This document shows, in pieces, positions 29,439 to 55,854 of a stretch of 64,000 nucleotides of DNA. A program made the translations under genes and the position numbers. The notes beneath the pieces were generated by a model that searched no databases, had not been told where the DNA came from, and was given only the letters and a program-made list of their open reading frames with translations. Position 1 is the first letter of the stretch, and the number at the start of each line of letters is the position of its first letter. The stretch lies in contig NC_092372.1 of NCBI RefSeq assembly GCF_030028105.1, positions 198,501,898-198,565,897 on the forward strand. The letters run 5' to 3'. The DNA comes from Mobula birostris. Lineage: Eukaryota.

Positions 29439-29965
29439 TGTTGTAATGTGAACAAAATCACAGAAGAGACGTAGCTACACACATAAAAATTGCTGGTGAA
29501 CGCAGCAGGCCAGGCAGCATCAATAGGAAGAGGTACAGTCGGCGTTTTGGGCCGAGACCCTTCATCAGGGCGTAGCTGGTAGATGTGAAGTAGTCTTTTA
29601 TTCAACAAAATGAGACACAGCAGGCGTCATATTGAGACCCTTCTGGAAGATGAGGCCTGCTCAACCCAACAATACATGCTAAAGAACAAAGGAAAGTTCT
29701 ATATTTACAAGGTATTTACAATGCCTCTTTTGAATTATATGTAAATTTCACATCTCCTTCTTTGCACTTATACACCAGACACCCAAAATGAATTATCAAT
29801 CAACATTGTCTGTTTTTTTTGATTAACTGCAGTTCACAGCTCAAGGAACCTATTGTTCCAGAGCTGCATTTTAAATTTAATCTACAGTCTAAAGATTGCT
29901 TGCTGAAGTTAGTTGCTGAAGTTAATGTTTTGCTGTAGAACCTAACTCTAGAATACTCTCTAACA
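29439..29965 (-). mobile_element. Solo LTR
   Basis: TGTT...AACA termini, flanking 5-mers CTCTA/CTCTT, and AATAAA on the minus strand (~29597-29603). Interrupted by a Penelope unit. Confidence 0.6.
29477..29570 (-). mobile_element. Penelope hammerhead-plus-tail unit with TSD
   Basis: Reverse complement reads CC CTGATGA AGGGTCTCGGCCC AAAAC GCC GACTGT...tail. TSD CGTAGCT (29470-29476 / 29571-29577). Confidence 0.85.
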
Positions 29966-30723
29966 CTCTTGGTTGCAAAAACTTATTTATTTCTGCCCCC
30001 TATGAATGTGATTTTCATCCTGCATCTTCTTGACCACTTTGTTGCCCTCATGTGACCACTGTTTGTTTGTGAGTCATGGTTCAGCTGGTAACACTACTGC
30101 CTCCAAGTCAGACAACTCTTGAGCTCAAAGATCCATCCTGATGAGGCAAAGGTTCGATGTTTTTCAACCAAGAGCTCAGTTTTCAAACTATTTCTTCACA
30201 ACTACATGGCTTCCTTAATTCTTCCACTGGCTCCTGTGTCTCTGAGATTTCATGCTCAGTGAGTTAATATTTTCCAATCATGTATTTTGGACAGCTAGAA
30301 TAATGAAAAGTTCAGGCATGTCTTAAAACAGCTGCTGGGCAGTGGTTAAACTGTAATCATCCCAGGAGAGGAAGACTGATCCACTGCAGTCTTGGCCAGT
30401 CACCCTGCTGGCCCTGAACTAATTAGGTCATGGACGTCCATTATAGGGAGGCAAACTTCTCAGCACAGTGGAGTCTCAGGTTACTCTCAAGGAGTTTTGA
30501 GAGAAACTCTGCTCCTCCAGGGCCCACTAGATATATAAACATTTGACTTTTGAATCCCCTTTGTCAGCTTTCTGCAAGTACAAAAACCATGAGGCATGCT
30601 GAACCCAAAAGTGGTATTAAGATCACACTAACATCAAAGAATCCTAATTTATCATTATTTCTAATTTTACTTCAGGCTTACTTGACTTGTTGATTCACGC
30701 GTCAAGCTAATGCTTGAGGAAAG

Positions 30724-30820
30724 CACACACAAAACGATGGAGAAGCTCAACAGGTCAGGCAGCATCTATGGAGGGAAATAAACAGTCGACATTTAGGGTG
30801 GAAATCTTTCATCAGAACTC
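30724..30820 (-). mobile_element. Penelope hammerhead-plus-tail unit
   Basis: Reverse complement reads AGTT CTGATGA AAGATTTCCACCC TAAAT GTC GACTGT...ATAGATGCTGCCTGACCTG. Confidence 0.75.
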
Positions 30821-30989
30821 AGTGCAAAACGTTTCTTTCTCTCAAATGTTGTGGTTCTACTATTTCTCTTTGGATGAGAGGCTTCAGGGTTATTTCTGAA
30901 AAGGCTGGATAGGACCAGGTAATGGTTACAGCACAGAAGGAAGAATACCCACATTCCTCTCGACTGGAGTAACTCTTTTGCTCTCCCCA

Positions 30990-31785
30990 AGGCAAGTCAA
31001 GTTTATTGTGCAGAAGTATGTTGAGATAAACATACAATGAAAAACTTGCTTGCAGCAGCAACACAGATACATAAGTACAGACAACACACAGAATATAAAT
31101 TATACATAAGTTATACAAGACAATGAAGGAAGAGAGAATAAAATAATTTATTGAAAAATGTTAGTGCAAAAAAAAACCATGTCCATATTAGTGGAAGAAG
31201 TGATTGGTTGTGTTCCATTATTGTGATAAGGTTAATGTCGGGCAGGTCAGTTTAGGAACTTAATGACTATAGACTAGTAATTGTTCCTGAACCTGGAGTT
31301 ATGAGACTTCAGGCATCTTGATCTCCTCCTGCCTGACAGTACCAGTGAAGAAGGGCATGGCCGGGATGTTGGAGATTTTTGATGATAGAAGCTGCCTTCG
31401 AGAGGCAGTGTCTCCTATAGATGCTGTCAATGGTGGGAGGAGCCGTGCCCACTAATAGACTGGGCTGCACCACCTACACTCTGCAACCACTTCAATTCCT
31501 ATGCATTGGAATTGTTGTACTGAGCCACGGTGCAACCAGTCAGGATACTTTCAATAGTGTATCTGTAGGGTGTTTGGTAACACACCAAATCTCCTTCAGC
31601 ACTTAAGAAAGTCGAAGTGTTGGCATGCTTCCTTCATGGTTGTATCTATATGCTGGGTCTAGGACTGATCATCTGAGACATTAATGCTTGGGAATTTGGA
31701 GATATTTACTCTCTCTGCCCCTAACCCACCAATTAGAACTGGCACATGGTCCCTTAACTTACCCTTTCTGAAATCAATGGCATGC
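30990..31785 (-). mobile_element. Rex-Babar LINE 3' fragment
   Basis: IDFRKGKLRDHVPVLIGGLGAERVNISKFPSINVSDDQS. Confidence 0.8.
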
Positions 31786-31815
31786 TCATTCTCCCGAAAT
31801 TTCTTTCCTAACAAT

Positions 31816-33281
31816 TCTTCTTCATGTGCCTTGGGCATTACACGCTTGGGCAATTATGGCTTTCCACATAGAACAATCCCAAGCAGCGTCAATGATATCT
31901 CACACTCTTAGATCTGTTAGTTCTTTCACAGTGTCCATATACTTTCTTCTTTGCCTTCCTCTTCCGCGTTTCCCAGGCATACGGCCTTGTAATGTAAGGA
32001 ATTCTATTTCTCCCTTTCTGATGACATGGCCCAGGAATTTAAGTTTCCTCTCATTTAACGTTCTCATTAAAGATCTTTTTGTATGAGCACGTTGGAGTAC
32101 TGTCTCATGAGTTACCCTATCTCTATATGATACTTTCAGCATTCTTCTAAGAAACCACATTTCTGTGGCTTGTAAGTTTCTTTGGAGTTCTGGTGTTATA
32201 GTCCATGTTTCGGAAGCATACAGCCAGATTGGCCAGATGTAACATTTTAGTAGCCTAAGCGTTGTTATAGAAGTGTGTCTGTTGGTAAAAATGGGTTTCA
32301 TTTTTTGGAAGTTGGTTTTGGCAATGGAAATTATTCTTTTTATTTCTACTTTACTTCTATCATCTTGTGATATAGAGCTACCAAGGTAATTAATGCTGGT
32401 CTTTTGTTCAATCTCTTGGTTACTGATGTACAATTGGCAGTTGGGAGTATCCTGCTGTTTTGATATTACCATATATCTGGTTTTTTTACAGTTGATGGTT
32501 AGACCAAAATCTGCACTTGTTTGTACTACTTTGTGTAGGAGAATTTGTAGGTCTTCTGCAGCACTTGCTATTAGGGTGCTATTAGTGTCTGCATATCTTA
32601 TATTGCTGATGTTAACACCTCCAATTTTTATCCCATCTCGGTCTTCTATTTCTCTGAGAATCATTTCACTATAGATATTAAACAATTCTGGTGAGGCAAT
32701 GCACCCCTGTCTAACTCCTCTTTAAATTTTAGTCCAACTGCTTATATTATCATCAAGTTTTACTGCTGCCATTTGGTTCCAATATAAATTTTGAAGCCGT
32801 TGTTGGTCCCTTCAGTCAATGTTTAGTTTAGCAAGAATTTGAAATAATTTTTCATGTTGCACTTTGTTGAATGCTTTAGTGAAATCAATAAAATATAAAA
32901 AGACATCATTTTGATATTCAATTGCCCTTTCTGAAAGCATTTGTAGTATGTAAATTGCGTTCCTAGTTCCTCTATCCTCAATAAACCCATACTGCAGTTT
33001 AGAAGTTTCTGGTCTTACTTGTTTTTGATTTGACTCAGAACAATTCTCAACAAAATCTTTATTATGTGACTCATAGGAGTGATTGTTCTATAATTTTCGC
33101 AGTCAATAGTTCCAGGAATTTTTGGCAGACTTATAAATACTGATTTCAAGAGATCGTCAGGCAATACACCAGACTCATATATGCCATTAAACAGTTCAAA
33201 AAGTATATCCATGCCCAGATCTTCGAGGGCTTGTATCATTTCTACTGAAATTTCATCAGGTCCAGCCACCCCATACACCCC
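31816..33281 (-). mobile_element. RTE-clade LINE RT region, 5'-truncated
   Basis: AGPDEI...IPGTIDCENYRTI; FNIYSEMILRE...NIRYAD; LYASETWT...EMWFLRRML; FLGHVIR...GKRGRGR. Tail is (GAA)n. Candidate TSD TTCCTAACAAT (31805-31815) / TTCCTAATAAT (33282-33292). Confidence 0.9.
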
Positions 33282-33459
33282 TTCCTAATAATATCTTTAT
33301 CTAATTCCCTGTTGATGGTCACAGTGGAATCTGCCTCCATAATATGCCCAGGAAATACATTCCAGTTCCCTACCACAGGCTGGTGAAAAAGAAATACTCA
33401 TTCAATGCTTAGCATTCAGGATGGGGGTAATAAATTGGAGTTGACACTAGCTTTGCAGA

Positions 33460-34785
33460 GGAAACCAGAGAGTTGTAGTACATGGTTGCCTCTCTGGCTG
33501 GAGGCCCGTGACTAGTGGTGTGCCACAGGGATTGGTGCTGGGTCCATTGTTCTTCTTGTTCTATATCATCAGTCTGGATGATAACATGGTAAAATGGACC
33601 AGCAAATTTTCAGATGACATCAAGATTGGGGACATAGTGGACAGTGAGGAAAGCAATCAAAGCTTGCAGCAGGATCTGGACCAGCTGGAAAATTGGGTTT
33701 AAAACTGGCAGATGGAACTTCATGCAGGCAAAAAAGTGTGAGGTGTTGCACTTTGGGAGGATCAACCAGGGTAGGACTTACATGGTGAACTGCAGGGCAC
33801 TGAAATGTGTGGTAGAACAGAGAGATCTGGGAATATAGATTCAAAATTCATTTGAAAGTTGCATCACAGGTAGCTGGAGTCATAAAGAGAGCTTTTGGCA
33901 CATTGGCCTTCATAAATCTAAATACTGGGTACAGGAGTTGTTATGTTGTGTTGAAGTTTTCCAATACATTGGTGAGATCCATTTTGGAATATTGAGCATA
34001 GTTCTGGTCACCTAACTATAGGAAAGGTATTAATAAAATTGAAAGACTGCAGAGAAAATTTACAATGATTTTGCCGGGATTTGAAGACCTGAGTTATAAG
34101 GAAATGTAGAATAGGTTAGGACATTTTCCCCTGGTGTGTATGAGATTTGATAGAATATCTTGAGGGTATTATTATGGCACACCCAAGCAGGTATTTTCCA
34201 CTGAGGTTGGGTGAGGCTAGAACTAGTGGTCATGGGTTAAGGGTGAAAGGTAAAATATTTTAGAGGAATATAAAGGGTTGAGTTGAGCGTTAAAGGGCAA
34301 AAGTTCAGGGGTAACATGAGGGGGAACTTTACTCAGAGAGTAGTAGCTGTGTGGAACGAGCTTCCAGCAGAAGTGGTTGAGGCAGATTCGAAGTTGTCGT
34401 TTAAAGTTAAATTGGATAGATATATGGACGGGAAAGGAATGGAGGGTTATGGGCCGAGTGCAGGTCGGTGGGACTAGGTGAGAGTAAGAGTTCAGCATGG
34501 ACTAGAAGGGCTGAGATAGCCTGTTTCCGTGCTGTAATTGTTATATGTTATATGGTTATTATAAGGGGGAAATTCTTCACTCAGAGGATGGTGAGAGTGT
34601 GGAACAAAATGCTATCAGAAGCAGTTGATGTGGGTTTGATTTCAACATTTAAGACTAATTTAGATAAGTAGATTAATTTAGATAATGTATGGAGTGCTAT
34701 AGTCTGGTTGCATCAATAGTTCAGCATGGACTAGATGGGCCAAGGACATGTTTCTGTCCTGTCGTGTTATATGACTCTCTGACTC
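33460..34785 (+). mobile_element. CR1 RT/3' fragment with a nested CR1 3' end
   Basis: TSGVPQGLVLGP...KFSDDIKIG...; ends CTATATGACTCTGTGACTC-like tail. Confidence 0.85.
34278..34559 (+). mobile_element. Younger CR1 3' fragment nested in a CR1
   Basis: VKGQKFRGNMRGNFTQRVVAVWNELP with a (TATGGTTA)-type tail. Same subfamily as 56587-57240. Confidence 0.85.
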
Positions 34786-34794
34786 ATTTCATTC

Positions 34795-35830
34795 TGTGTT
34801 CTCTTCCCTTTCATTTATGACCCGTGACCTCTAGTGCTTGACCCTCCGTCAAAGCGAACAGCCTCCCACTTTTCTCTCTGTCCACACCTCGATCATTTAT
34901 AGATTTTTATCAGAAGTCCCATTAGCCTTCTGTTCTCTAAAAGAAACAGTCTCAAGCTCTCTAATCTATCCTTGTAATTCAGGTCGTTCAGCCAGGAATC
35001 ATTCTCATAAATCTTTTCTGAATTCTCCCTTATGTCTTCACATACTTGCTGCAACTTTAGCTCGATTGAAGTGTACAGGATGGTTAGAGGCACAGACAGA
35101 GCGGATTGTCAGAGATTTTTTCTCAGAGTGGAAATGACAAATACAAGGGAACATAGTTTTATGGCGATTGGAGGAAAGTATAGAGAGATGTCAGAGGTTA
35201 GTTGTTTAACAGAGAGTGGAGGGTGTGTGGAACACCCTGCCAGGAATGATGGTAGAGGCATTTAAAAATCTCTTAGGCATATGGATGACAGAGACATGGA
35301 AGATTATGTACAAGGGAATGATTAGATTGATCTTGGAGTAAGTTAAAAGGTTAGCACACCATTGTGGGTCAGAGGGCCTGTAATGTCCCAAGTTCTATGT
35401 TCTATGTTCCATCTCATGGGGAATATTGCTGAACACAATATTCCAGTTCAGGCAAGAGCAGTGTTTCGTAAATGCTCAGCATAACTTCTCTCCAAATTAA
35501 CTGTCTTCTCCACCTGCCCAACTGCTTCCAAAGATTCGTGAACACATTCGCATGGTCCCTCTGCTCTTGCACCATTTCTGAACAGAATCCTTTCCTATAT
35601 TTTGTCCCCCTTCATTCTTCCTACCAAAGTGCTTCATCTCACATTCAACTTCATTCGCCCAGCAGATGCCATTTCCACCAGCCGACTTATAATTTACTGC
35701 GATCATCACCGTTAAAAATGCTGTCAAGGTGTGTGCCAAATACAAATTTAGAAACTGTGGTTTGTCCAAATCAATGTCATCAATAGAAATAAAAATAACA
35801 ATGGCCAAAACACTGAGCCCTCCGCGATAC
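34795..35830 (-). mobile_element. Old CR1 fragment (minus strand) containing a plus-strand CR1 3' end at 35063-35408
   Basis: LNYKDRLESLRLFLLENRRLMGLLIKIYK on minus. EVYRMVRGTDRADCQRFF...(TTCTATG)n on plus. Confidence 0.75.
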
Positions 35831-35835
35831 CATAA

Positions 35836-37135
35836 TTCAGAATCAAGTGTGGTTCATTATCACTGAAATAGATTGTGAAATATATTGTGCTGCCCTCACC
35901 CCCATCTCCTCCATTTCCTGAACATCTGTGCTCACTTCATCTTCCTGCCGCCTTAACGATGACAGAGTTCCTCTTGTCCTTACCTACCACTCCACTCCAT
36001 GAGCCTCCACATCCAACACATCATTCTCCGCAACTTCCGCCATCTCCAAAGGAATCGTACCACTAAACATATCTTTATTTCGCCCCTCTGTCTGCAAGGG
36101 ATCATTCCCTCCATGGTTCCCTTATCTATTCATTCCACCCCACTAATCTCCCTCCCAAACAACTTAAATGTGACCAGACATTTTAATTCGGATTCCCATT
36201 CCCATTCTGACATGTCAGTCCATGACCCCCACCCCCCCCCACCCCATGCCAAGATGATGCCGCCCTCAGGGTGGAGGAGCAACACCTTATATTCAGTCTG
36301 GGTAGCCTCCAACCTAATGGCATGAATATTGATTTATCCTTCTGATCAAAAAAGAATTCCCTCCCCCTTCTCTCTTCTATTCCCCATTCTGGCCTCTTAC
36401 CTCTTCTCACCTGCCTACCATCTCCTCCTTCCCTTTCTCCTATGGTCCACTCTCCTCTCTTAACAGATTCCTTCCTCTCCAGCCCTTTATCTTTCCTACC
36501 CACCTGGCTCCCTCCCCCGCCCCATCACCTTCTAGTGATCCTCCTTCCCATCCCCTAACCTTTCTATGCTAGCATCTTCCCCCTTCCTTTCCAATTCTGA
36601 AGAAGGATCACGGCCTAAAACGTCAACTGTTTATTCATTTTCATAGATGCTGCCTGACTTGCTGAGTTCCTACAGCATTTTGTGTGTGTTGCTTTGGATT
36701 TCCAGCATCTGCAGATCTTCTCATGTTTATATTGTGAAATTTGTTGTTTTATTTCTGCAGTACAGGTATAAGGTATAAAATGACTATAAGTTGCAAAAAT
36801 CAGTCAATCCATAAATAAATAAATATTGGGAAAGAGGAATAGGGAGTTAGTTCATAGACTGTACAGAAATCTGAAAGTGGAGGGAAAGAAGTTGTTGCTG
36901 AAATATTGAGCGTGGATCCTCAGACTCCTGAGGTAGGAATGAGAAGAGGGAATGCTCTGTGTGGTGAGTGTCCTTAATGATGGATGCCACTTTTTCGAGT
37001 CACCACCTCTTAAAGATGACCTCAGTGGTGGGGAGGGTTGTGCCCATGATCCAGTTGGTTATGTCTGAAACATACTGCAGCCTCTTTTGATACTGTCTCC
37101 ATACCGGGTGGTGATACAACCAATCAGAATTCTTC
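35836..37135 (-). mobile_element. Rex-Babar 3' fragment split by Penelope
   Basis: Tail TCAGAATCAAG...; after 36740 it continues AGAAATCTGAAAGTGGAGGGAAAGAAGTTGTTGCTGAAA..., as at 42800-42890. Confidence 0.7.
35882..36730 (+). mobile_element. Penelope element 3' part (partial GIY-YIG region, pyrimidine tract, hammerhead, tail) with 10-bp TSD
   Basis: SLHIQHIILRNFRHLQR...VTRHFNSDSHSHSDMSVH...RVEEQHLIFSLGSLQPNGMNID. Hammerhead-like motif at 36593-36630. TSD ATTGTGAAAT (35872-35881 / 36731-36740). Confidence 0.9.
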
Positions 37136-38302
37136 TTCTGTCTGAAAAATAACCTCTCACTGAAGCCCTCTGTTGTCTGCCAAATTGCCTACTTTGTACA
37201 CATGCTGTCAAAGTCCCTTTTATGTCATGTGCTTTAACTTCACTGGTCTATCATAGAATCTACCCCCATTATCTTCTATTATGCCAGGCTCGGCTCCTTT
37301 GAGCATGCTGTCCTGTCACTTTGCCAGTGCTGATTTTCACTTGTTCCATTCAAAAGTCCTCATCCATGTCTTCAATAACTCCATGACTCCACTCTGCTCT
37401 GTCCCAGACACATTCCCTTATAACATTCGGTGTTCTGACTCTTTCTGTTTATTTATTCCCTTCTTTCCCTTACAGCTGTCAGCAGGACCCTCAGCTGTCT
37501 CTGTCATGATGGCTAGACCCTATAATTTTAAAATTGCTCTCTCTTTCTTTCCTTTAAAAGCCTCTTGTGAAAAGCATCGGTTTCTCCATTTTCCTCTTCT
37601 AGTCTTTCCTTCGACATTTCAGCATCAGTGCACCATTGAATAGTGCCTTCGTTTGTACTTAGTATTAAAGTTGCTATGCAATGACAAGTCGTGTGCTCTT
37701 CTTTGGAGGTGAGTTCAATTATTGCTCACTGACTCCATCTACAGGAGCCTAGTCTACATTGCCACTGAATCACATCTGGACTCTTTTCTGCCGGGGAAAA
37801 ATATTGCAGCTGCTTTGAGGGAATACAAATGACTAAAATTAATTAACAGTCGTGCCTGCTCACTGTGAGGTAAGCTCCACTGAAGTCGTGCTCTGACTGG
37901 AGCAGAAAACAATGGAAAGATGTCACCATTCGATTCACTCCGGGTTTTTACCTCAAAAATTAAAATAGCACAGGAAAATTGGAAGGTATGATGGGCTGGA
38001 TTTTTTTCCTTTTGTTCTGAATATTTCAATGCTTTTATTTCACAAAAAGAGCAAATTTGGTAGGGAAAGAAAATTCAATATTTAATTTAATTCAAAATTT
38101 AACAGTAAAAAGACAGGTGTCCTCAAGATCTAATCAGGTTTACTGGAAATGCACCAAATACTACTGTTGCCAACTGAATGGATCGGCTGAAAATTTTCTG
38201 CAAACTAATATTTGTCACAATTTTTCTGATTACTGTCTCGGCTGTGTTTGTTTCATTTTGGAGATCATTCGAGTACAATAACATCTCCAACTTACATTTA
38301 TA

Positions 38303-38745
38303 TTGGAATTGGAATTGATTTATTACAGCCACATGTACCAAGATGCAGTGAAAAAACTGCTTTACAAGCGGTCCTGCAAAGTACATTGAGGTAGTACGAG
38401 GGAAAAGCAATAACTGAATGCAGAATATACCATCGCAGTTACAGGTACAGGGAAAATATTGTGTAGGTAGTGGATAAGGTACAAGGGCCACATTAAGGAC
38501 GATTGTGGGGTAAAGACTTCATCGTTAACATACAAGAGGATTATTCCAGAATCTCTTAACAGTGGGGTGGAAGCAGTCCTTGTGTTTGTTGATGTGTATC
38601 AATTTTGTATCTTCTGCCTGATGGAAGGGGGAGAAGAGGAAGTATCTGTGGTTGGAGGTGTCTTTGATTGCACTGTCTGCGTTTCCTTGGAAGCAGGAAA
38701 AGTGGACAGACACATGGAAGGGAGGCTAGTTTTCATGATGGAGTC
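38303..38745 (-). mobile_element. Rex-Babar 3' fragment
   Basis: SCFQGNADSAIKDTSNHRYFLFSPFHQAED; (AATTCC)n-type tail. Confidence 0.7.
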
Positions 38746-38859
38746 TTTAACAAAAGAATATATCTTAAGGTGCTTCATGAAAATATAACATCAAAGTTTA
38801 TCGTCAAGTAACATGAAATGATGTTAGTAAAGTGACAAGAGACAAAGTTTCAAAATTGG

Positions 38860-39087
38860 AGGGAGAGTGAGAAATTCCTTTAGCCAGAGGATGGTGAATC
38901 TGGGAATTCATTGCCACAGGCAGCTGTAGAGGCCAAGTCATTGGGTGTATTTAGAGCAGAGATTGATACATTTTTGATTTGTAAGGGAGTCAAAAGTTAT
39001 TCGGAAAAAGCAGGAAAATGACTTAGAGAGAGATAATAAATCAGCCATGATAGAATAGGGGAACAAACTTGATGGGCTGAATGGTCT
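38860..39087 (+). mobile_element. CR1 3' fragment
   Basis: AATTCCTTTAGCCAGAGGATGGTGAATCTGGGAATTCATTGCCACAG...TCAGCCATGATAGAAT...GATGGGCTGAATGG. Confidence 0.8.
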
Positions 39088-39857
39088 TATCAAGTTCAAG
39101 TTTATTGTCATTCATCCTGTATACCACCAAAAGAAAATAACATTCTTCCTGACCCAAGTGCACAGCATAGTACATATGACTCACACACAAGGCATAAAGT
39201 AATATTACCACAAATAAATTAACAAATAATAAAATATAATCCAGAAGATTGACATTTGTCGTAAGGTGCATTTACAACACAAGTTGAAAAATAGACAGTA
39301 TAACATTACTGGCACTTCATGCATGACGAAAGCTGGGTGGGTGGCACGAAGTTCAGTAGTCTCAGGGCCTGGGGGAAGAAGCTGTTTCCCATCTTAACTG
39401 ACCTTGTCCTAATGTTACAAAAGCTCCTACCTGATGGTAGGGGTTCAAAGAGAGTGTGGGATGGATGGGAGGAATACTTGACAATGTTAGGGGGCTGTAT
39501 ACACAGTGCTCCTGATAAATATCTTGGATGGGTGGAAGAGACACCTTTACAATCCTCTCAGTAGTCCTAACATTCCCTTGTAAGGTCTTGCGGTCAGATG
39601 ACTGGCAATCGGTCAAGACACTCTCAACGGTTCTCCTGTAGAAATTGGTTAGAATGGAGTTAGGATCTCCTCAAGAATTAGAGATGCTGCTGTAATTTCT
39701 TGATTAAAGAGGTGGTGTTGTGGGACCAGGTGAGATCTCAGTAACCTAAGTGCACTCCTAGTAACCCTGTGCTCCTCAGTCTCTCCATGGATGAGTTATT
39801 TATGTGCAGTAAGGAGTGGGCAGTCTGCGCCCTCCTAAAGTCCAGAATCATCTCTTA
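39088..39857 (-). mobile_element. Rex-Babar 3' fragment
   Basis: DCQSSDRKTLQGNVRTTERIVKVSLPPIQDIYQEHC; (AACTTG)n tail. Confidence 0.85.
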
Positions 39858-41224: not shown

Positions 41225-41545
41225 GTTAAACCTTTAATTGTCACATGTACATAGAAACATCGAAAGATACAGTTAAAAAAATGTTGTTTGTATCAATGAC
41301 CGATACAGTCCGAGGTTGTACTGGGACTGCACACAAGTCTTGCCATGCTTCTGGCACCATCATAGAATGCCCACGACTTACTGCATCCTACATCTTTGGA
41401 ATGTGGGAGGAAACTGGAGCACCTGGAGGAAACACACACTGCCTCGGGGAGAAGGTACAAACCCCTTATAGACAGCAGTGGGAATGGAATCACAATTGCC
41501 GGAGTTATAAAGTGTTACGCTAACAGTTACTCCACCATGCCAACA
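41225..41545 (-). mobile_element. V-SINE, near full length
   Basis: Reversed V-domain TTGGAATGTGGGAGGAAACTGGAGCACCTGGAGGAAACACAC...GGGGAGAAGGTACAAAC plus a tRNA-like head. Confidence 0.8.
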
Positions 41546-41830: not shown

Positions 41831-41958
41831 AAGGGTCTCAGCACAAAATGCCAACTGTTTATTCCCCTCCGTGGATGCTGCCTGCCCTGGCAAGCTCCTC
41901 CAGCATTTCATGTGTGGTGCTCGTGATTTCCAACATCTGCAGAATCTCTGGTGTTTTT
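41831..41958 (+). mobile_element. Penelope terminal unit (partial hammerhead plus tail)
   Basis: AAGGGTCTCAGCACAAAATGCCAACTGT...GATGCTGCCTGCCC...CCAGCATTT...CAACATCTGCAGAATC. Confidence 0.75.
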
Positions 41959-45239: not shown

Positions 45240-46130
45240 AAAGTAAATTTGTTATCGAAATACCTACTGTATATGCCACCATATACTACTCTGAGATTCA
45301 TTTTCTTGCGGGTATTCAAAGGTTCATTTTATTATTGAAGTACTTATGCAGAATACAACTCTGAGATTTGCCTTCTCCAGATAGCCATGAAAAGCAGAAA
45401 TGCCATAGAAGTAGTTGAAAGAAAAGATATCACTGCAACTCCCCCCTCCAAAAAACAAAAAAACAAAAAGAAACAAAATCTCGCAAACTCCAAAGCCCCC
45501 CAACCCCTCCCTTGCACAAAAATTAACAGATTGCCCACCTGGAAAACGACAGCTAGAACATCAATCTCCAACCCCTTCCCTCACACAAAAATCTAATATA
45601 TTATCCACATGGAGTAGAAAAAAGAAATACAATAGAATCCCTGAAAAAATGCCCACAAAGACTGACAAACAACCAATATGCAAAAGAAGACAAACCGTGT
45701 GAACACAAAAATAATAATAAATAAAGCTGAGAACATGAGTTGAAGAGTCCTTGAAAGTGAGTTCATGGGTGGTGGAATCAGTTCCGTATTATGGTGAGTG
45801 AAGTTATCCATGCTGGTTCAGGAGATGATGGTTGAAGGGTAATAGCTGTTCCTGAACCTGGTGGTGTGGAACCTATGGCTCTTGTATCTCCTTCCTGATA
45901 GCAGTAGCAGGAAGACAGCATGGCCTGGATGGTGAGGTCCTTGATGATGGATGTTGCTTTCTTGTGGCAACACTCCTTGTTGATGTGCTCTATGGTGGAG
46001 AGGTCTTTTCCTGTGATGGAGTGTGGTGCATTCACCACCTTTTGTAGGCTTTTCCTTTCTTGGGTATTGATGTTTCCATACCAAGCCATGATGCAGTCAG
46101 TCAAGATACTCTCTCATGTGCATCTATAGA
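45240..46130 (-). mobile_element. Rex-Babar 3' fragment with long 3'UTR
   Basis: DCIMAWYGNINTQERKSLQKVVNA...SIIKD...LLLSGRRYKSHRFHTTRFRNSYYPS. Confidence 0.85.
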
Positions 46131-46409
46131 AACATATGATTGGGAGTTTCTACAGGTAGTATCTTACATACCCCCATTCTCTTTCAAACCAACGGTGGTC
46201 ACACAGTCATTGAGTTATACAGCAAAGCAACACTGATGGTTACAGATGGCTTCTGCTACCATCCAGACCATGTGCCTGGTAACTTCCTCATCCTCATCAG
46301 GTGACACCCTGCTAATGTGGTCATTGGCTCTTGTCTTATACCTTCCCCGAGGAGCTAATGAGTGATTAGCCGCTCGGCATGTGACCTCTACCGTGAGTCT
46401 CCCCCACAC

Positions 46410-46645
46410 ACGTGGTAGTGTAGCAGTGAGCATAGCATTATTACAGCAGCAGAGACCAGGGTTCAAATGCACCGCTGCCTGTAAGGAGCTTGTAAGTTCC
46501 CCTCGTGACCGTGGGGGTTTCTCCTGTGTGCTCTGGTTTCCTCCCATGTTCCAAAGGTGTACAGCTTGCATGGGTATAATTGGGAAGCGTGGGCTCATTG
46601 GGTCAGAAGGGCCTGTTACTGCTTTCTATCTCGAAATGAATAAAA
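46410..46645 (+). mobile_element. V-SINE
   Basis: B-box-like GGTTCAAATGC; V-domain TGTAAGGAGCTTGTAAGTTCCCTCGTGACCGTGGGGGTTTCTCCTGTGTGCTCTGGTTTCCTCCCA; LINE-type tail. Confidence 0.8.
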
Positions 46646-48093
46646 CTGGAAAAAGTCAGCATAGTAGCCATGTAGAGTGATTGAAAATCATTATTTTCTG
46701 TGTGTATTTAATTAAAATTGGTGTATTTTCTTACCTTATTCAAAACGATTTTAAGGATGTCCCAGGTTAAGACAGAAATGACCCTGACCCTCATTTGAAT
46801 TTGGACTGGAGTGTGTGAGGGAGCTGAAGGAATATGCATGAGAGGTAGATGCAGGCAAATTTAAAGCAGGAAGTGCTGGGGTGGTGATGGGAATAAGAGG
46901 GTGGATAGGACATGACTGGGAAGACACTGAGGGCAAAAATAAATGATGAGGGAAGGAGTGAAAAGTGACACATTTTGCTCATGACCCAAGGTGCTGCCAT
47001 GTGCATTTCTACGACATACAAACGACGTCATCAACCATTAGTAACCATAAGGAAAGAAGAGAAAAGGGAAACCAGCAATTCTGTGATGGGAATAAGAGGG
47101 AAGTGCAACTGCACAAAATAGTGAAAAGTAGCAGCCGTGGGATAACACATAGTTGTTTTTTTTTCACTGTCTGTACCTGACCCAGATCCTTGCAATTTAC
47201 AGATGAAAACTGCTGGACCTGACCTGCAAAATACTGTGGTGTCCAAAAGGAGTTTTCCGGATGATCCTAATTCACTAAAACAAGAAAATGTTTTTAACAG
47301 CCAGCACCGAAAGCTTATACAGTGCTAATATCCTCCACATTGAGAAGATCTCTTTCAGTGAGACAAAGGTTGTTTACTGTTCTGTATCTTCTTCATAGTT
47401 GCTTCTGTGTGAGTTACTGTTTGTGCGAGTGAGTATTCATGAGAAGGCAATGTTCTCTTTTAAAGCGGAATATTGCAGCATTTTTTCCAGCATGAAAGAA
47501 GCACTCCGTTATTTTACCTCAATGCTCCTGTATGGATGGTATGCTAGACAGGTTTTTTCATTATATTTTAATAAACCAATTTAATAAAACAACAGATAAA
47601 CTGCTGGAAGAATTCAATGGCTCAAGCAGCTTCTGTGGAGGCAAAAAAAAATATGTGAGCAAATTATTCATGCAAATATTTCATTTCTTCTTTTCTCAGA
47701 GTCTTGTGGTTGCCTGGAGCTGATAAATATCACGGCTGAAGAAAGTGGCCAAGGAATTTGACAAATCTACAATCATGTCAGCGTGTGACCTCTTTTGGTT
47801 TTGAAACCAAACCAGCCTCAGCTAATTTCCACTTTGAAAGATGTTGAACAAAACTGGTTTGGATAGGATTGATATAAGATTGAGTGTTTTATGGTTGGCG
47901 AAAACTTGGTTGGCTGACGGGCCTGTTTTCATTCTATATCTTTGTATGTGTAAAGTGCAAAAGGATATTGTATTCATGTTACAGGGTTAGAAAGGTTTTT
48001 CTTGGGAACATCTTGTGTTCACACTGAAGTGAAGATGGTTATGAAAGTGGGCCCCAGCAGTGATCCAACAATCAGTAATCCAACACATTGATA

Positions 48094-48227
48094 TGATGAA
48101 GGGTCTCAGCCCAAAACATCATCTGTTTATTTTCCTCCATTGATGCTGCCTGACCTGCTGAGATCCTCCAGCGTTTTGTGTGTGTCTCTCTGGATGCCCA
48201 GCATCTGCAGAATCAATTATTATGTTT
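48094..48227 (+). mobile_element. Penelope hammerhead-plus-tail unit
   Basis: TGATGA AGGGTCTCAGCCC AAAAC ATC...tail. Candidate TSD ACATTGATATGA (48085-48096) / ACATTCATGTGA (48228-48239). Confidence 0.8.
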
Positions 48228-48979
48228 ACATTCATGTGACTCCTAGATGCCATCACTACGGTCACTGTATTACAAATCTGCTGTCCTCTTTCCGGATGTT
48301 TGTAGTGCTGATATGTCACTGCCATTTCACCTGTTCTCTTGCTGTCACCTTGCAAGTTCAAACTTGAGCCCAGAACTATTCAAGACTGCTCTCCCAGCAC
48401 ATCTGCAGCCTTCTCCATTATAAGCAGAAGTGGGCCATGCCAAGTACTTCCTCCCATCGTTTGTGTTCTCCCCCCTCACTTTCTCCTCCATAGGTGTTTA
48501 CCACATGACACGAGTCAAGGGATAAGCCTCTCATTGGCAAGATTTTATAGCATAAACTCATCATGATGAACCTTGACACTTGCTCCTCTGTTGAAATCCC
48601 CGCATTGGTATTACAGCCTGAGCACACAGGGTCTGCGGTGGGCTGGCATTTATTGTATGCATGATATTTACACGTGTGCAGAGGTGACAAACCAAAGTCT
48701 AGGGTCATATCATCAAGTTGCCAAGTAACACCCTAGATTTTATCATGTAGGTTCCAGTAGGGAAGGCACAATAGCTGCAGGATATTGGGCATCATGAATT
48801 CTTCCAATGCAGTACTTACTAGAGTCATAGAGTTATACAGCACAGACACTGATCTGTAGGACCTGTGTGTATGATGACTATCAAATACCTGACTATTAGC
48901 AACAGCATCATTATGTGCCATGTCATATGACGCAGACCATCATGGTCTCATGACCGTAGCCGTTCTTAGATACATCGAA

Positions 48980-49160
48980 TAGAGCATAGAAAACCTGCAG
49001 CACAATACAGGCCCTTCGGCCCACAAAGCTGTGCCGAACATGTCCTTACCTTAGAACCACCTAGGGTTACCCATATCCCTCTATTATTCTAAGCTTCACA
49101 TACCTATCCAGGACCTCTTTAAAGACCCTATCATTTCCACCTCCTTCTGACACCGGCCTA
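48980..49160 (-). mobile_element. CR1 3' end
   Basis: Nearly colinear with the first ~190 bp of the CR1 at 49662-50190. Confidence 0.8.
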
Positions 49161-49176
49161 CAAACTTTATTAATGC

Positions 49177-49268
49177 AGTCCTGAAGAAGGGTCCCACCCC
49201 AAAACAATGACTGTTCATTTCCGTAGAAGCTGCCTGACCTGCTGAGTTCCTCCAGCATTTTGTACGTG
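49177..49268 (+). mobile_element. Penelope hammerhead-plus-tail unit with TSD
   Basis: CAGTC CTGAAGA AGGGTCCCACCCC AAAAC AAT GACTG...tail. TSD TTATTAATGC (49167-49176) / TTACTAATGC (49269-49278). Confidence 0.8.
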
Positions 49269-49661
49269 TTACTAATGCCACTGCAAGCTTGTCTGTAACC
49301 CTTAGGTGATGGAGAATTCAATGTTCTTTGCTGACGTCCTTTACTGGAAAAAGGATGGCAATCAGCTCCTTCTCTAGTTTCATATCATAAATCTCATAGC
49401 CAGATTGACTTTGACCGAGATGGTCTTTGAACTCTTCACCTTGGTTATAACTTGGAGCTTTTAGCTGATGCAGATGACAACATTCCATGGCATCCTTACT
49501 AAAGTGGCATCATATATTGTTGCTTGCTGAGACTCCCTCTGACCACTACCACAATCTAAACTCCATACTTATTCCTCTTTCTCTATCGTTCAACAGCTTA
49601 TCTTGCTCTCCATGCCTTCTGCACATTTTCTCAGTCATGGCAGAGTCAAATTCAAGTCTTA

Positions 49662-50190
49662 GAAACATAGAAACATAGAAAACCTACAATACAATACAGG
49701 CCCTTCGGCCCACAAATCTGTGCCGAACATATCCCTACCTTGGAACTACCTAGGCTTTACACATAACCCTCTATTTTTCTAAGCTGCCTGTAGCCATCCA
49801 GGAGTCTCTTAAAAGACCCTATCGTTTCCACCTCCACCACCACCACCGGCAGCCCATTCCACAGACTCACCACTCTCTGCGTAAAAAACTTACCCCTGTC
49901 ATCTTCTCTGTACCTACTTCCAAGCACCTTAAAACTATACCCTATCGTGCTAGCCAATTCAGCCCTGGGGAAAAGCCTCTGACTATCCACATGATCAATG
50001 CCTCTCATCATCTCGTACACCTCTATCAGGTCACCTCTCATCCTCTGCCACTCCAAGGAGAAAAGACCAAGTTCACTCAACCTATTCTCATAAGGCATGC
50101 TCTCCAATCCAGGCAACATCCTTGTAAATCTCTTCTGCACCCTTTCTATGGTTTTCTACGTCCTTCCTGTAGTGAGGCGACCAGAACTGA
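49662..50190 (-). mobile_element. CR1 3' fragment
   Basis: QKRFTRMLPGLESMPYENRLSELGLFSLE...RGKFFTQRVVSLWNGLP; (TTTCTATG)n tail. Confidence 0.9.
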
Positions 50191-50584
50191 GACAAAGACA
50201 AAGACTCTTACAGTTGACACATTACTCCATGTAGACTTTACCAGACCGAATAACTCTGGAAAGCACCAAATATTTGTGCCTAGCAACAACTAGTTGAAAT
50301 TTTTATCTAAGAACAAATGCTCCCATTAAATTTTTCATGTTGTGGTCCTTCAGGACAGTGAGTGCATGTTGCATTGTGCAAGAGGAATTAGGGGAAGGCA
50401 ATACTCTGAGTATTGTGCTCTAGTTTAGCAGCACAGCAATCAAATCAGCATTGCAGATCCATTAATATTATAAGCTGCCAGCTTTATCACATCAGACCTT
50501 AGCATTAAATACCTTGCTAATATAGCAGTGGCATGATTTATGCTGCCTCCATACTGCCAAAACAATGAATACTATGTTGCTCAA

Positions 50585-51382
50585 AGAAGAGAAAATCTGT
50601 AGATGCCAGAAATCCAAGCAACACACACAAAACTCTGGAGGAACTCAGCAGGTCAGGCAGCATCTATGGAAAAGAGTAAACAGACGATGTTTCAGGCCAA
50701 GACCCTTCATCAGGACTGGAAAAAGAAATGAGAAGTTAGAACAAGAAGGTGGGGGGAGGGGAGGAAGAAGGGGAAGGTGGTAGGTGATAGGTGAAATGGG
50801 AGGAGGGCGAGGAGTAAAGTAAAAAGCTGGAAAACTGAGAGGTGAAAGAGTGTAGGGTTGGAGAGGGGAAATCTGATAAGAGAGGGTTGAAGACCATGGA
50901 AGAAAGGGAAGAGAGAGGAGCTCCAGAGGGAGGTGATGGGCAGGTAAGGAGATAAGGTGAGAGAGGGAAACAGGAATGGGAATGGTGAAGAGGGGGGCAA
51001 TTACCAGAAATTCAAGAAATCGATACTCATGCCATAAGGTTGGATGCTATCCAGAAGGAATATAAGGTGTTGTTCCTCCAACCTGAGTGTGGCTTCATCG
51101 CGGCAGTAGAAGGGGGCATATACTGACATGTTGGAATGGGATTGGGAAGTATAATTGAAATGGGTGGCAACCAGGAGATCCTGCTTTTTCTGGTGGATGG
51201 AGCGTAGGTGCTCAGAGAAGGGGTCACCCAATCTGCATCAGGTCTCATCGATATACAGGAGGCCACACTGGAGCACCGGACACAGCAGATGACCCCAACA
51301 GACTCACAAGTAAAGTGTTACCTCCTTTGGAAGTATCGTTTGGGGCCCTGAATGGTAGTGAGGGAGGAGGCGCAGGGCAGGT
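50585..51382 (-). mobile_element. Penelope element 3' part: GIY-YIG endonuclease remnant, hammerhead and tail
   Basis: Minus strand reads HFTCESVGVICCVRCSSVASCI.., then GDPFSEHLRSIHQKKQDLLVATHFN...LRLEEQHLIFLLDSIQPYGMSIDF. Hammerhead at 50681-50718. Confidence 0.9.
50681..50718 (-). ncRNA. Minimal type-I hammerhead ribozyme motif (best-preserved copy)
   Basis: CAGUC CUGAUGA AGGGUCUUGGCCU GAAAC AUC GUCUG. CUGANGA and GAAA cores are intact, stem II is short, stem I has one mismatch, and the NUH triplet is AUC. Confidence 0.65.
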
Positions 51383-51654
51383 ATGGAGTTAACTTTTGCA
51401 GATCAGTTTTACCAAAATATTTACAAAAGATGGAAATTGTCCCACAATGCAATATTTTATGCTTGACTTAAACATTCATTGTCAGAGCTGACGTAAAACA
51501 AGAGCATGTGCTGAACTGATTGGTAGCCCCTTCAGCCAATTATAATATCTTCAGCATATAAAAACTTAGAATTGGAATTGGAAAGAGGGGTAGGGAGATC
51601 TTAAATAATAGGCAAAACAGTGGGTAAAGTGATAAAATTCCCATTATTAAATAG

Positions 51655-53480
51655 AAGTCATGGAAGGTATAGAACACTACAGCACAGAAACAGTCCCTGT
51701 GGCCCATCTAGTCCATGCCCAGCCATTGATCTGTCTGTTCCCATCGACCTGCCCCTGGAACATAGCCCTCAATTTCCTTCCCACCCATGTACCTATCCAA
51801 GTTTCTCTTAAATGTTGAAATCAAACCCAGATCCAGCGCTTGCACTGGCATCTGACTCCACACCGTCACCACACTCTGAGTGAAGAAACTCTCCCTCATG
51901 TAACCCCATTAAAGTGGTCATACATTTCTTATTCCTCAGTTCTATCCATAAAGTCTCACTAGACAAGTTCTCCAGTCTGTCCTGTCTGAGGACTGCCATG
52001 ACATTTTCCCTGACTAGTAATGCCTGCCCTCCCCCTTTAATCCCTGGTTCCCCAGAATACTGGCCCTCCTGTAACCAAGTCTCACTAATGGCCATAATGT
52101 TGTAATTCCATGAGTTGATCCATGCCCAAAGCACATCCGCCTTTCCTACAATACTTCTTGCATTGAAATATATGCTGCTCAGAGCATTAGTCCCACCATC
52201 CTCAACCTTTCGATTCCTGACTTTGTATGTAGGCTTAACAATATCTTTCTCCACAACCACTCCTCTACTGTTCTGGCACTCTCGTTCCCATCTCCCTGCA
52301 ACTCTTGTTTAAACGCACCCCCCCCCACCCCCGCTGTGTACCACTAGCAAACCTTCCCACTAACATATTACTTCCCCCCCGTCCCCCACCTCAGTTCAGG
52401 TGCAAACAGTCCTTTCAGTACCGGTCCCACTTTCCCTGGAAGAGAGCCCAATGATCTAAAAATCTGAAGCCCTCACTCTTGCACCATCTCCTTACTCACA
52501 TGTTAAATTGCATGATTTTCCTATTTCTGGGCCTCACTAATCTGTGGTCCAGTTAGCAATCCGGGGATCAGAACTTTGGATGTCCTGTCCTTTAATTTAC
52601 CACCAAACTGACTGAACTCTGTTTGCAGGACCTTGTCAACTCTCCTACCCATGACTTTGGTACTGATATGGACCATGACCTCTGTTTTCCCATTCTCCCA
52701 TTTAAAAGTGTTACGGACTCAGTCCGATATGTACCTGATCTTGGCACCCAGGAGGCAACATGTCACCTGGGAATCTTGTTCTCGTCCACAAAACCTCCTT
52801 CCTGTTCCCCTGCGCACCAAATCCTCTATCACTACAACTCGCCTCTTCTCCCCACTTCCCTTCTGAGCCACAGAGCCAGGCTCAGTGTGAGAGAGCTGAC
52901 TGCTGTGGCCTCCCTCTGCTAGGTCATCCCCACAAATGTATCCAATGCAATATTCCTGTTGTTAAGCGGAATAGCCACAGGGGTACTCTGCACTGGTTGC
53001 CTCTCTCCTTTGCCCCTCCTGACGCTCTCTCAGTTACCTGTCTCCTTCACCTTGGGTGTAACTACTTCCCAAAATGTCCTGTCTATCAACCCCTCTGCCT
53101 CACAGACGATCCGGAGTTCATACAGCTCCTGCTCCAACTCCTTTACGCAGTCTGTTAGAAGCAGAGCAGCATGTAGTCGTTGCAGAGTTACTGAATTTCT
53201 CCCTGTCCTCCCACATCCCGCAAGAGGAGCATTCCACTATCCTGCCTGGCATTCCCACTGTGCTAAAACTGCAATAAAAAAGAAATAAAGAATAAAGTTT
53301 TAAGAATTCTACATACAGCCTGCACCTCCCCTCGCCGAAGACTTGATGAGCCAAAGGCTCTACTCCCCACTCTATCACTGGCCCACTCACACAATGGCTG
53401 TTCTACTTAAATCTATCCTCTCTTCTATTAGATATTGCCAAGAGCCTAACTATGCACAATCAAATGCCCTGCTTACTTCT
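51655..53480 (-). mobile_element. Internally deleted CR1: 5'UTR, ORF1 and endonuclease start fused to the 3' end
   Basis: MPGRIVECSSCGMWE marks the ORF1 start, and degenerate esterase follows. IYFNARSIVGKAD...ISETWLQ...IELRNKK..TTLMGL then jumps at ~51900 to MRESFFTQSVVTVW and the tail. Confidence 0.85.
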
Positions 53481-53924
53481 TTCAAACACTCTCTTCCTCT
53501 GCACTATCCAATGTCACCTCACGAACTGTGGCTCACAAAATGGGAAATAGCTAAATATGGGAAATTTTCTAGCAGTGTCCATCTTCAATAGGTCTTAACC
53601 TGATTTTTTTTATGAAGCCATTGTGTCCTGTTTACTGCTTACTGAATTCCCACTATTTGCATGAGCCTAACCTGCTCTGTCTGCATTCATGCCAATGTTT
53701 AAATGTGAAATAAGCTTCAAGCCATGTGTCAGTGCCCTCAATAAAGGCATTCATAAATGTTCCTGTCCTTGGTCACCTACTGCTGAAAATTTTACTCTTC
53801 CAGTGCCCTAACGGCCAGTCTCATTCCTTCTACCCTCTTTGAGCATAAGGTAATCCACGTCTCTCTTGCACTAGCCCTTGTTTTTTTACACATAACTGCT
53901 AAGCTTGCCAAGATATTATAAGGG

Positions 53925-54165
53925 TTATGAAGTCACTCAACATGGAAACTGTTCCCTTGGCCCATCGGGCCCCTGCCAACCAACAAGCACACATTCACAT
54001 CAGTCTAGCATTAATCCAATTTGTTCTCTCCAAATTGCCTCAACTCTCCTTCCTCAGATTCTACCTCCCACCTACACATTAAAGGCAATATTAGTGGTGA
54101 GTGAACCTACAAAACTGAAAATTTCTGCGATGTGGAGGAAACTAGACTACCTGGAGGAAATCCAT
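53925..54165 (-). mobile_element. V-SINE 3' part with CR1-type tail
   Basis: GAAGTCACTCAACATGGAAACTGTTCCCTTGGCCCA...TGTGGAGGAAACTAGACTACCTGGAGGAAATCCA. Confidence 0.6.
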
Positions 54166-54291
54166 GGTATTGGTAAGAGGTTAAGAGTGGGAATAAAGGG
54201 AACCTTTTCTGTCTGGTTGTCAGTTGCTAGTGTTGTTCCACGGGTGCCTGTGTTGGGACTGATGCTTTTTACATTATATGTCAATCATTAG

Positions 54292-54757
54292 GAATTAAGA
54301 TCAGGTCACTCGTCTGAGTGCTACCGGTACCATGTAACCCAGTACTACCTGTCGCATGGTTGGGTGGTCGATGACTAAACCGGCTCCCCCACCAGGCTTG
54401 CCTGGTGAGGAGGGTGACTAGACACCCTGCAGGACAAAAAACAAGACCTGTCAAAGGGCGGATGAACCCTCTCGTAGGGTCAACGTGCCATGAAGCGTGG
54501 AAAGGGCATCCCTTGTATCGAAGCTTGGTCCGGCCATTCACCATAACAGAACTTCCCCCCGCCGTCTTGGACCTCACCATGCTGCTGGATCTGGGAGGGG
54601 ATGTCGAGAGGGTGGGTCTGGACCTGTGCATCCCCCTACTCACCTAAAATCCACTCATGCACAGGCTGTTCCCTTCTGAGGAATGGGGTACCACCCCACT
54701 AACTGACTGAAAGGAACCATCATAATCCTATGGGATGGATAGCCAGAGAGAGAGAGA
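54292..54757 (+). mobile_element. Unclassified GC-rich short retro-element with (AG)n tail
   Basis: Interrupts the CR1 reading frame between YVN and DDG, and ends in (AG)7. No pol III A/B boxes recognised. Confidence 0.6.
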
Positions 54758-54905
54758 GGATGATGGAATTGATGGCTTTGTTACAAAGTTTGCAGAAAAT
54801 ATAAAGATAGGTGGAGGGGCAGGTAGTTTTGAGGAAGTAGAGGGGCTACAGAAGGACTCATACAGAATAGGAGAATGGGCAAAGAAATGCCAGATGGAAC
54901 ACAGT

Positions 54906-55046
54906 CAAAGCACAGTCCTGCCAAAGGGTCTCAGCCAAAACGTCGACTGTACTCTTTTCAATAGATGCTGCCTGGCCTGCTGAGTTCCTCCAGCATTTTG
55001 TGTGTGTTGCTTGGATTTCCAGCATCTGCCAAATTTCTTTTGTTTG
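54906..55046 (+). mobile_element. Penelope hammerhead-plus-tail unit with 14-bp TSD
   Basis: CAGTC CTGCCAA AGGGTCTCAGCC AAAAC GTC GACTG...tail. TSD AGATGGAACACAGT (54892-54905) / AGATGGAATACAGT (55047-55060). Confidence 0.9.
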
Positions 55047-55854
55047 AGATGGAATACAGTGTCAGGAAATGTATGGTCATGCACTTTGGTAGAAGAAATG
55101 AAAGGGTTGAACATTTTCTAAATGGAGAGAAAATTCAGAAACATGAGGTGCAAAGGGACTTGGGAGTCTTTGTGCAGGATTCCCTAAAGGTTAACTTGCA
55201 GGTTGAGTCTGTGATGAGGATGGCAAATGCAGTGTTAGCAACAATTTTAAGAAGACCAGAATATAAAAGCAAGGATATAATGTTGAGACTTTATAAAGCA
55301 CTGGTGAGCAGTGTTAACCACACAGTATGAATAATTGATGTGTTAACTTCACAACAGTTCAAAGTAGGTTCACAAAAATGATTCCAGAATTGAATGGCTT
55401 GTTGTATGAAGAGCGCTTGATGGGTCTGGGTCTATATTCACTAGAATTCAGAAGAATAAAGGGTAACCTCATGGAAACGTATCAAATTGTGAAAGGCCTT
55501 GTTAGAGTGGATGCGGAGAGGATGTTTCCTATGGTGGGAGAACCTAAGATCAGAGGACACAACCTCAGAGTAGATGGGCAATCTTTTAGAACGTAGATGA
55601 AGAGGAATTTCTTTAGCCAGGGAGTGGCGAGTCTGTGGAATTCTTTGTCACAGGCAGCTGTGGAGGCCAAGCCTTTAAGTATATTAAAGGCAGAGGTTGA
55701 TAGATTCTTAACTGATCAGGGCATGAAGGGATACGGGAAGAAAGCAGATTGGGGCTGAGGGGAAATGGATTAGCCAGGATGAAATAGCAAAGCAGACTTG
55801 ACAGGCCAAATGGCTAATTCTGCTCCTATATCTTATGGTATTATGGTCTATCTT

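Follow-up and report, generated by a model that had tools for sequence, protein, structure and literature searches.

We analysed a 64,000-nt stretch of the Mobula birostris genome (NCBI RefSeq assembly GCF_030028105.1, contig NC_092372.1, positions 198,501,898 to 198,565,897; hereafter the window), in which short insertions begin at a minimal hammerhead ribozyme motif. Judged by their sequence, these segments of 95–140 bp are the pseudo-long terminal repeat (pLTR) ends of an autonomous Neptune-type Penelope-like element (PLE). Their 5′ junctions form a sharp peak at A(-4)/G(-3), directly before the ribozyme and upstream of its predicted GUC cut, not at the cut. Such clustering had been claimed for the window in a first-pass annotation made from its letters alone; it holds genome-wide, and the breakpoints formed a sharp peak, not a smooth truncation curve. 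The peak is the only new part, the elements and their ribozyme motif having been described already; no description of it was found in the open literature, subscription journals and supplements lying outside the search. The peak bears on how PLEs are copied and on what their hammerhead does: a stop that is sharp to the base, lies ahead of the ribozyme and is kept by copies with a mutated core speaks for an origin of most insertions in uncut RNA and for a defined 5′ end of that RNA. With moderate confidence, we take the shared edge at A(-4)/G(-3) to be the 5′ end of the element RNA, off which the reverse transcriptase (RT) runs.

Positions are numbered from C3 of CUGANGA (0), the 5′ strand of stem I (AGTC) occupying -4 to -1 and the predicted hammerhead cut lying between +27 and +28. 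The 4.0-Gb genome was sampled as 150 evenly spaced 10-kb stretches, which held 279 pLTR copies. Breakpoints were scored in 114 young (subfamily A) copies, selected through a motif on the 3′ side of the ribozyme; 54 came from the spaced stretches and 60 from pattern matches within the initial 40 Mb of C1, and an inversion contributed each of its two arms. Twenty-three of the 91 young copies at risk stopped in 0 to -9, a hazard of 2.9 per 100 nt as against 0.72 in +1 to +27 (nominal p = 7e-6) and 0.37 in -10 to -79 (nominal p = 9e-10), i.e. 4–8 times the rate of the flanks. Stops in this bin numbered 13/45 among copies with unique flanks, 8/45 in the random stretches alone and 15/46 in the pattern matches. 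Because the bin had been chosen after the first junction data were seen, a scan test was added: the best 10-nt interval held 24 of 58 junctions, as against a maximum of 22 in 5,000 constant-hazard simulations. Three of the nine copies that continue into the open reading frame (ORF) and reach 0 also start in 0 to -9.

Across the genome, 1,591 filtered junction-type matches were found against 26,847 read-through matches; from these counts, ~17% of the young copies reaching -2 end in -6 to -2. In a hand tally of the 100 matches listed, 82 had G(-3). Of these 82, 45 also had A(-4) (p = 9e-7 against 0.29), and the consensus T(-5) was present in 13 of the 45, which is background, indicating an upstream edge that is sharp at -4 with its mode at G(-3). 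Older subfamilies showed the same hotspot, 38 of 108 copies stopping there with a mode at -4; in the same analysis, none of 34 control copies linked to the ORF, known to be long, was miscalled. The breakpoint alignment used there retained 214 of 291 copies (score at least 40, 3′ end reached); being permissive and local, it over-extends some junctions into the pyrimidine tract, and its -10 to -19 bin is unreliable. It put the window copies at 29571 and 49173 at -24 and -43, which target-site duplications (TSDs) and the other junction calling corrected to -1 and -4. An all-versus-all upstream alignment was discarded because shared inverted arms inflated it.

Among the 46 of the 114 young copies that could be examined for TSDs (unique flank, uncensored), 20 had them, against 0–2 in 15 shuffles; in the older hotspot set, 22 of 38 copies were examined and four had them, against 0–1 shuffled. 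In about 8 of the 13 unique-flank hotspot copies the TSD directly adjoined the junction, indicating that no upstream exon was carried along.

The identification as Penelope terminal repeats with a minimal hammerhead and an ACGU palindrome, also made in the first pass, was borne out. Close relatives in the same genome extend upstream into a pyrimidine-rich 3′ untranslated region (3′UTR) and then into an ORF, whose C-terminus lay directly upstream in 43 of the 279 sampled copies. At locus L115, a single stop-free frame of 710 aa encodes RT, a Cys linker and a GIY-YIG-like end, the endonuclease-containing (EN+) layout. This frame matched Pfam RVT_1 with E = 8.8e-6 (26 bits, below the curated cut-off of 29.6); YIDD and GVIY...LYIGET were read by eye in its protein, the linker is CKRNKCYTC (CX4CxxC, within CX2-5CxxC), ADKGG supplies a DKG motif, and a PDB sequence search with this protein gave no match. 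The repeat occurs at both ORF ends, with an optional tail, an inverted arm and TSDs. By the definitions in the accessible portion of PMC8557442, and not by a tree, the element would be of the Neptune/Nematis type. Past the tail, the sequence runs into the 5′ region of the ORF (174 exact matches; locus L264 joins L118), and two 3′ end classes, at ~+95 and ~+130, match the known tail. Extrapolation to the genome gave ~750,000 pLTR ends, and one exact 33-mer of the repeat had 55,762 genome matches. Within 600 nt, 160 of the 279 copies were solo, 95 had neighbours on the opposite strand only and 24 had one on the same strand.

The CAGTC-CTGANGA...GAAAC-GTC-GACTG motif said to make up the window segments stands as a family consensus, since a CUGANGA...GAAA..UH core is intact in none of the seven segments that had been listed. 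It is intact in 39 of 46 young copies and in 66 of 154 among all copies reaching C3. Column counts over 86 ungapped copies gave the CUGANGA/GAAA/UH core, stems I and II and a palindromic 15.2–16.2, with no loop III; stem pairing was kept in 74–99% of cells, and among the common pair types changes were one-sided only. Two copies were predicted by cofolding to pair through several segments. CTGANGA alone was not enriched in the window (53 matches vs 43.8 ± 6.8), and an Rfam search of the window gave no hammerhead at gathering score. The lowest-energy fold predicted for a real young copy was a rod spanning -4 to +31 (-14.7 kcal/mol for -8 to +36), more stable in the model than the hammerhead fold (-8.1 kcal/mol), and in subfamily A the predicted Watson–Crick stem of this rod ends exactly at -4. 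In subfamily A copies (e.g. L263 and L290), helix I is immediately preceded by two AGs, a pyrimidine tract and, at -24 to -18, a branch-point-like TACTAAC or variants of it, an arrangement like that at the helix I intron end of Drosophila virilis Penelope. A subfamily with the mutated core CUGCCAA has multiplied (130 exact genome matches); among those of the read-through type, a variant carrying T at -4 is met repeatedly.

In the mechanism that we favour, transcription would start at the initiator-like YYAGTCC, the ribonucleoprotein would prime at the tail of the same 5′ pLTR, an internal site ~100 or 135 nt downstream of -4, and RT would run off the RNA 5′ end at -4. A microhomology of 1–3 nt would serve to join the run-off complementary DNA (cDNA) to the second nick, and the product would be a TSD-flanked stub that is a dead end. 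Longer copies would be made on circular or read-through (tandem) templates, or after the run-off cDNA has jumped. According to the accessible text of PMC11167929, two internal RT starts define the tail of the anole Poseidon element PAc, hammerhead cleavage is unneeded and a shorter template 5′ end gives a shorter product; the protein-binding region reported there lies downstream of the RT start, which would make the pLTR–ORF junction the competent site. An internal promoter with an initiator inside the pLTR is described for Drosophila virilis Penelope in the part of PMC2377424 available. Here, YYANWYY was found at -6 to 0 in 33 of 38 ORF-linked copies, and the one-sided edge stayed at -4 even with a stem I extended by one pair (C(-5) in 3/15 and 1/8).

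Several points weigh against run-off at -4. The transcription start is itself one that we infer from the sequence. A cap-derived extra G was not seen in the young subfamily (G(-5) in 12/45, p = 0.22) and was weak in the older ones (6/15; 4/8, all four explicable as inversions), and the mode falls on G(-3), whereas A(-4) is the presumed +1. As a motif YYANWYY is weak: of its eight matches within the final 485 nt of L118, seven have no peak. The same bases also make up the 5′ strand of stem I and, in 33/38 copies, a YAG acceptor. The D. virilis start, in the portions of PMC2377424 and PMC4209133 available, lies ~120 nt upstream of helix I, the place to which the intron end maps. Six of nine ORF-continuing copies and about three-quarters of the young copies read through -4, which obliges the model to include either another class of templates, longer than the first, or a jump that leaves no seam. 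An additional initiator, at -8, was rejected, having no full match.

It is possible, though doubtful, that the stubs record a strong-stop-like cDNA: primed at the 5′ pLTR tail and run to -4, it would need transfer to the 3′ pLTR or to tandem or circular RNA for the ORF to be copied, and the stubs, hundreds of thousands in number, would be failed transfers. Minus-strand strong-stop DNA of long terminal repeat (LTR) retroelements is a short cDNA primed internally, close to the 5′ end of the RNA, and extended up to that end. In the proposed view, unlike there, priming would be on target DNA, so that a failed transfer would leave a genomic stub. If this is true, pLTR regeneration and partial tandems would be accounted for with no need of ribozyme cleavage, and the stubs would map the element start site to the base.

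That hammerhead self-cleavage, or RT arrest at the ribozyme fold, sets the 5′ junction is most improbable. Cleavage predicts junctions at +28, where none of the 114 young copies began (one began at +27). Arrest at the fold, which the first-pass annotation had suggested, should halt RT at the foot of stem I on its 3′ side, at ~+32 or further 3′; junctions were rarest there (hazard 0.12 in +28 to +49, the lowest). The peak moreover stays in the CUGCCAA subfamily (21 purine-flanked vs 109 pyrimidine-flanked exact matches, and also the window copy beginning at 54914), indicating that it is independent of an intact catalytic core. On the other side, the hazard is mildly raised over +1 to +27 (0.6–0.9 per 100 nt vs 0.1–0.3 far upstream) and one TSD-flanked copy begins at +27; cleavage or arrest as the cause of the main peak is largely refuted, with room left for a minor cleaved fraction. 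Very unlikely, too, and for subfamily A refuted, is ordinary 5′ truncation with clustering that arises from microhomology, the pyrimidine tract or alignment loss. Most TSD-resolved hotspot junctions do show 1–3 nt of microhomology, and -4 is also the point where subfamilies diverge upstream. However, events at the same GTC word were 16/78 at -3, 1/90 at +10 and 1/99 at +25 in subfamily A, and 23/98, 8/122 and 2/143 in the older subfamilies, which speaks against microhomology as the source of the clustering; the hazard within the tract is low, the hotspot flanks are unique DNA with TSDs, and none of the 34 long controls was miscalled. It is also quite unlikely that the short units form a self-propagating non-autonomous family, a ribozyme-bearing short interspersed element (SINE) or retrozyme, as had been put forward, copied in trans from its own transcripts or circles. 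Short copies bear their own TSDs and would keep an internal promoter, and rare internally deleted mini-units exist (see below). Against this, the sequences do not separate: between 19 hotspot and 58 long copies of subfamily A, a small sample, none of 16 sites differed after correction (smallest p 0.047), clustering gave p = 0.195, both sets had the same two 3′ end classes, and a diagnostic sequence such as a SINE would own was not found. Nor are the units tandem, a same-strand neighbour lying within 600 nt in only 24 of 279 copies and no head-to-tail array being found in the window. They are not bounded by cleavage sites, their 5′ ends being -4/-3 with 0/114 at +28; a canonical hammerhead with helix III and its loop was not found in the family, and the junctions of the mini-units differ between loci.

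A 3′ splice site is a rather unlikely source of the peak: the pyrimidine tract and YAG (-5 to -3) would end an intron, and splicing factors bound at this site, or an RNA end produced at it, would halt RT at -4 to -2. The YAG stands behind a long pyrimidine tract in those 33 of 38 ORF-linked copies, a branch-like TACTA(A/G/T)C word lies at -24 to -18, and in D. virilis Penelope the 5′ edge of helix I marks the end of the intron (PMC4209133). However, hotspot copies share no upstream exon and their TSDs adjoin the junction, the presumed branch point has no peak (unique-flank hazard 0.33 in -10 to -19), the second CAG of subfamily A, at -9 to -7, has few junctions, and no strong GT donor was seen by eye in the 3′UTR. 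No recurrent GT..AG joint ending at -2 was present among the joints listed (15 of 560), which was used neither for nor against splicing; loose ends piled up at -4 in each of four runs, with the pyrimidine tract of other subfamilies as their consensus, and these too were left unused. Fold-back of the cDNA, by which a mirror hairpin (-4 to +31) would form once the 5′ strand of stem I is copied, leave the RNA and join the target or self-prime, is unlikely as well. The predicted rod, with its energy advantage and its stem ending at -4 in subfamily A, would suit it, and 4 of the 45 A(-4) copies in the hand tally of the matches listed resemble stem-I fold-backs. In the older subfamilies, however, C(-5):G(+32) extends the stem and yet C(-5) remains at background (3/15; 1/8), and the CUGCCAA subfamily, whose rod lacks the inner helix, has junction copies at least as often (21 vs 109 matches, about half of the copies after scaling).

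Template jumping from the hotspot, another of the earlier suggestions, occurs in some copies, where cDNA that stops at -3/-4 has primed again: letters matching +5 to +10 precede 9 of the 100 matches listed, and locus L293 resumes at -3. Among the first 45 of the 174 loci where the tail reads into the body, 29 were internally deleted two-pLTR mini-units with differing junctions. These mini-units, among loci L261–L305 (e.g. L265, L268, L263 and L303), are ~160–640 nt long (one is longer), and the body end clusters at +280 to +295. In L265 and L268, two of three informative loci, one and the same junction occurs twice, the pattern expected from more-than-unit copying. Such copying, which circular or multimeric RNA as first proposed would allow, is seen only in this rare class and is absent from the window; it is the only retrozyme-like trait found. 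At C1:59379229-59379409, three adjacent hammerhead-edge matches with 73-nt spacing form a small tandem whose units start at ~-4.

The element resembles the EN+ Neptune/Nematis PLEs, as described in the available parts of PMC8557442 and PMC3846280, in its ORF (RT, C-terminal GIY-YIG, CX4CxxC linker and DKG) and in its pLTR, optional ~34-nt tail, head-to-head inversions, 10–15-bp TSDs and partial tandems; it differs from those described there in its extreme copy number and its sharp 5′ breakpoint peak. Minimal hammerheads are known from PLE pLTRs, mostly as dispersed single motifs from truncated elements (PMC4209133). Those found here are likewise mostly dispersed single motifs, with a helix I of 4–5 bp, an unpaired base between 9 and 10.1, G10.1-C11.1 and a palindromic 15.2–16.2 (ACGU), but have a helix II of 3–4 bp, one mutated-core subfamily that has multiplied and a competing rod fold predicted to be more stable. 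As in PAc, going by the accessible text of PMC11167929, two 3′ end classes ~34 nt apart match two internal RT starts, and insertion would be from uncleaved RNA; unlike in PAc, the tail lies upstream of the likely ATG and not inside the ORF, and that text reports no preferred 5′ junction of genomic copies. With animal non-LTR retrozymes, in the portions available of PMC7229834 and bioRxiv 10.64898/2026.07.22.740005, it shares a type I hammerhead, an origin in PLE pLTRs and large TSDs. Retrozymes are described there as tandem 150–450-bp units with canonical hammerheads that yield circles, whereas here the copies are dispersed stubs with a minimal, decayed motif and a start before the cut site.

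In the window, all seven segments listed in the first pass exist and belong to one repeat. That list was selective, a profile search with nhmmer giving 12 copies:

4706..4785, minus strand: pLTR stub without the hammerhead, starting at ~+53
5160..5303, plus strand: older stub of the pLTR, its start at +2 (5203), preceded by a short inverted arm in head-to-head orientation
8240..8388, plus strand: pLTR copy of the young subfamily A that takes in some of the pyrimidine tract, junction -34; no TSD found, core decayed
28876..28952, plus strand: old, weak pLTR match (24 bits), junction uncalled
29477..29569, minus strand: short pLTR insertion of subfamily A, junction -1 (29569), short 3′ end, marginal 8–9-nt TSD
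30724..30819, minus strand: short pLTR copy of an older subfamily, junction A(-4) at 30819, no TSD found
35890..36729, plus strand: longer copy, omitted in the first pass, with ORF remnants, 3′UTR, pLTR (36591-36729) and tail
41831..41958, plus strand: short pLTR copy with tail, junction +6, 5′ half of the core missing, no convincing TSD
48094..48227, plus strand: short pLTR copy with tail, junction +1, proposed 8-nt TSD at chance level
49177..49268, plus strand: short pLTR insertion, junction A(-4), 10-nt TSD
50580..51382, minus strand: longer copy, omitted in the first pass, with a GIY-YIG remnant (51007-51377), 3′UTR, pLTR (50580-50720) and tail
54906..55046, plus strand: short pLTR insertion with tail, of the CUGCCAA mutated-core subfamily, 14-nt TSD

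Six of the seven listed segments indeed have their 5′ junctions near the 5′ edge of the motif, at -1, +1, -4, -4, -4 and +6. The remaining one, given as 8250-8388, is a real copy but starts at 8240, with its junction at -34. In the insertion at 54906..55046 the element begins at 54914, which is A(-4), and 54906-54913 are eight extra bases after the TSD. The two omitted copies, 36591-36729 (plus strand) and 50580-50720 (minus strand), run upstream into Penelope 3′UTR and GIY-YIG remnants. TSDs had been assigned to four of the segments, and against a null of 300 random pairs two of these were strong, one was marginal and one was at chance level. The pair 54892-54905/55047-55060 (14 nt, one mismatch) scored 12, none of the 300 exceeding 8; 49167-49176/49269-49278 (10 nt, one mismatch) scored 8, reached by 3/300; 29468-29476/29569-29577 scored 7, with 12/300 at 7 or more; and the putative 48085-48092/48228-48235 scored 6, with a null of 67/300. 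For the copies at 8240-8388, 30724-30819 and 41831-41958, which had been given as lacking a clear TSD, none convincing was found. Window positions 1-195 (minus strand) are part of the N-terminal region of this Penelope ORF, truncated where the window begins.

The window also contains other elements. At 46195-46407 (minus strand) lies an Rfam match to nuclear RNase P RNA (42.6 bits, gathering 28) whose 3′ part is degraded and which is likely a retrocopy or pseudogene. A long, little-decayed long interspersed element lies at 14922-18994 (minus strand), with endonuclease and RT frames and 577 aa free of stops, which by eye we take to be CR1-like. Pieces of a cut-and-paste transposase at 57895-60601 (minus strand), presumably hAT-like by eye, are interrupted by another element, and decayed gag-like and RT-like frames at 1164-1550 and 22283-22837 (both plus strand) are, as we take them by eye, of the LTR-retrotransposon type.

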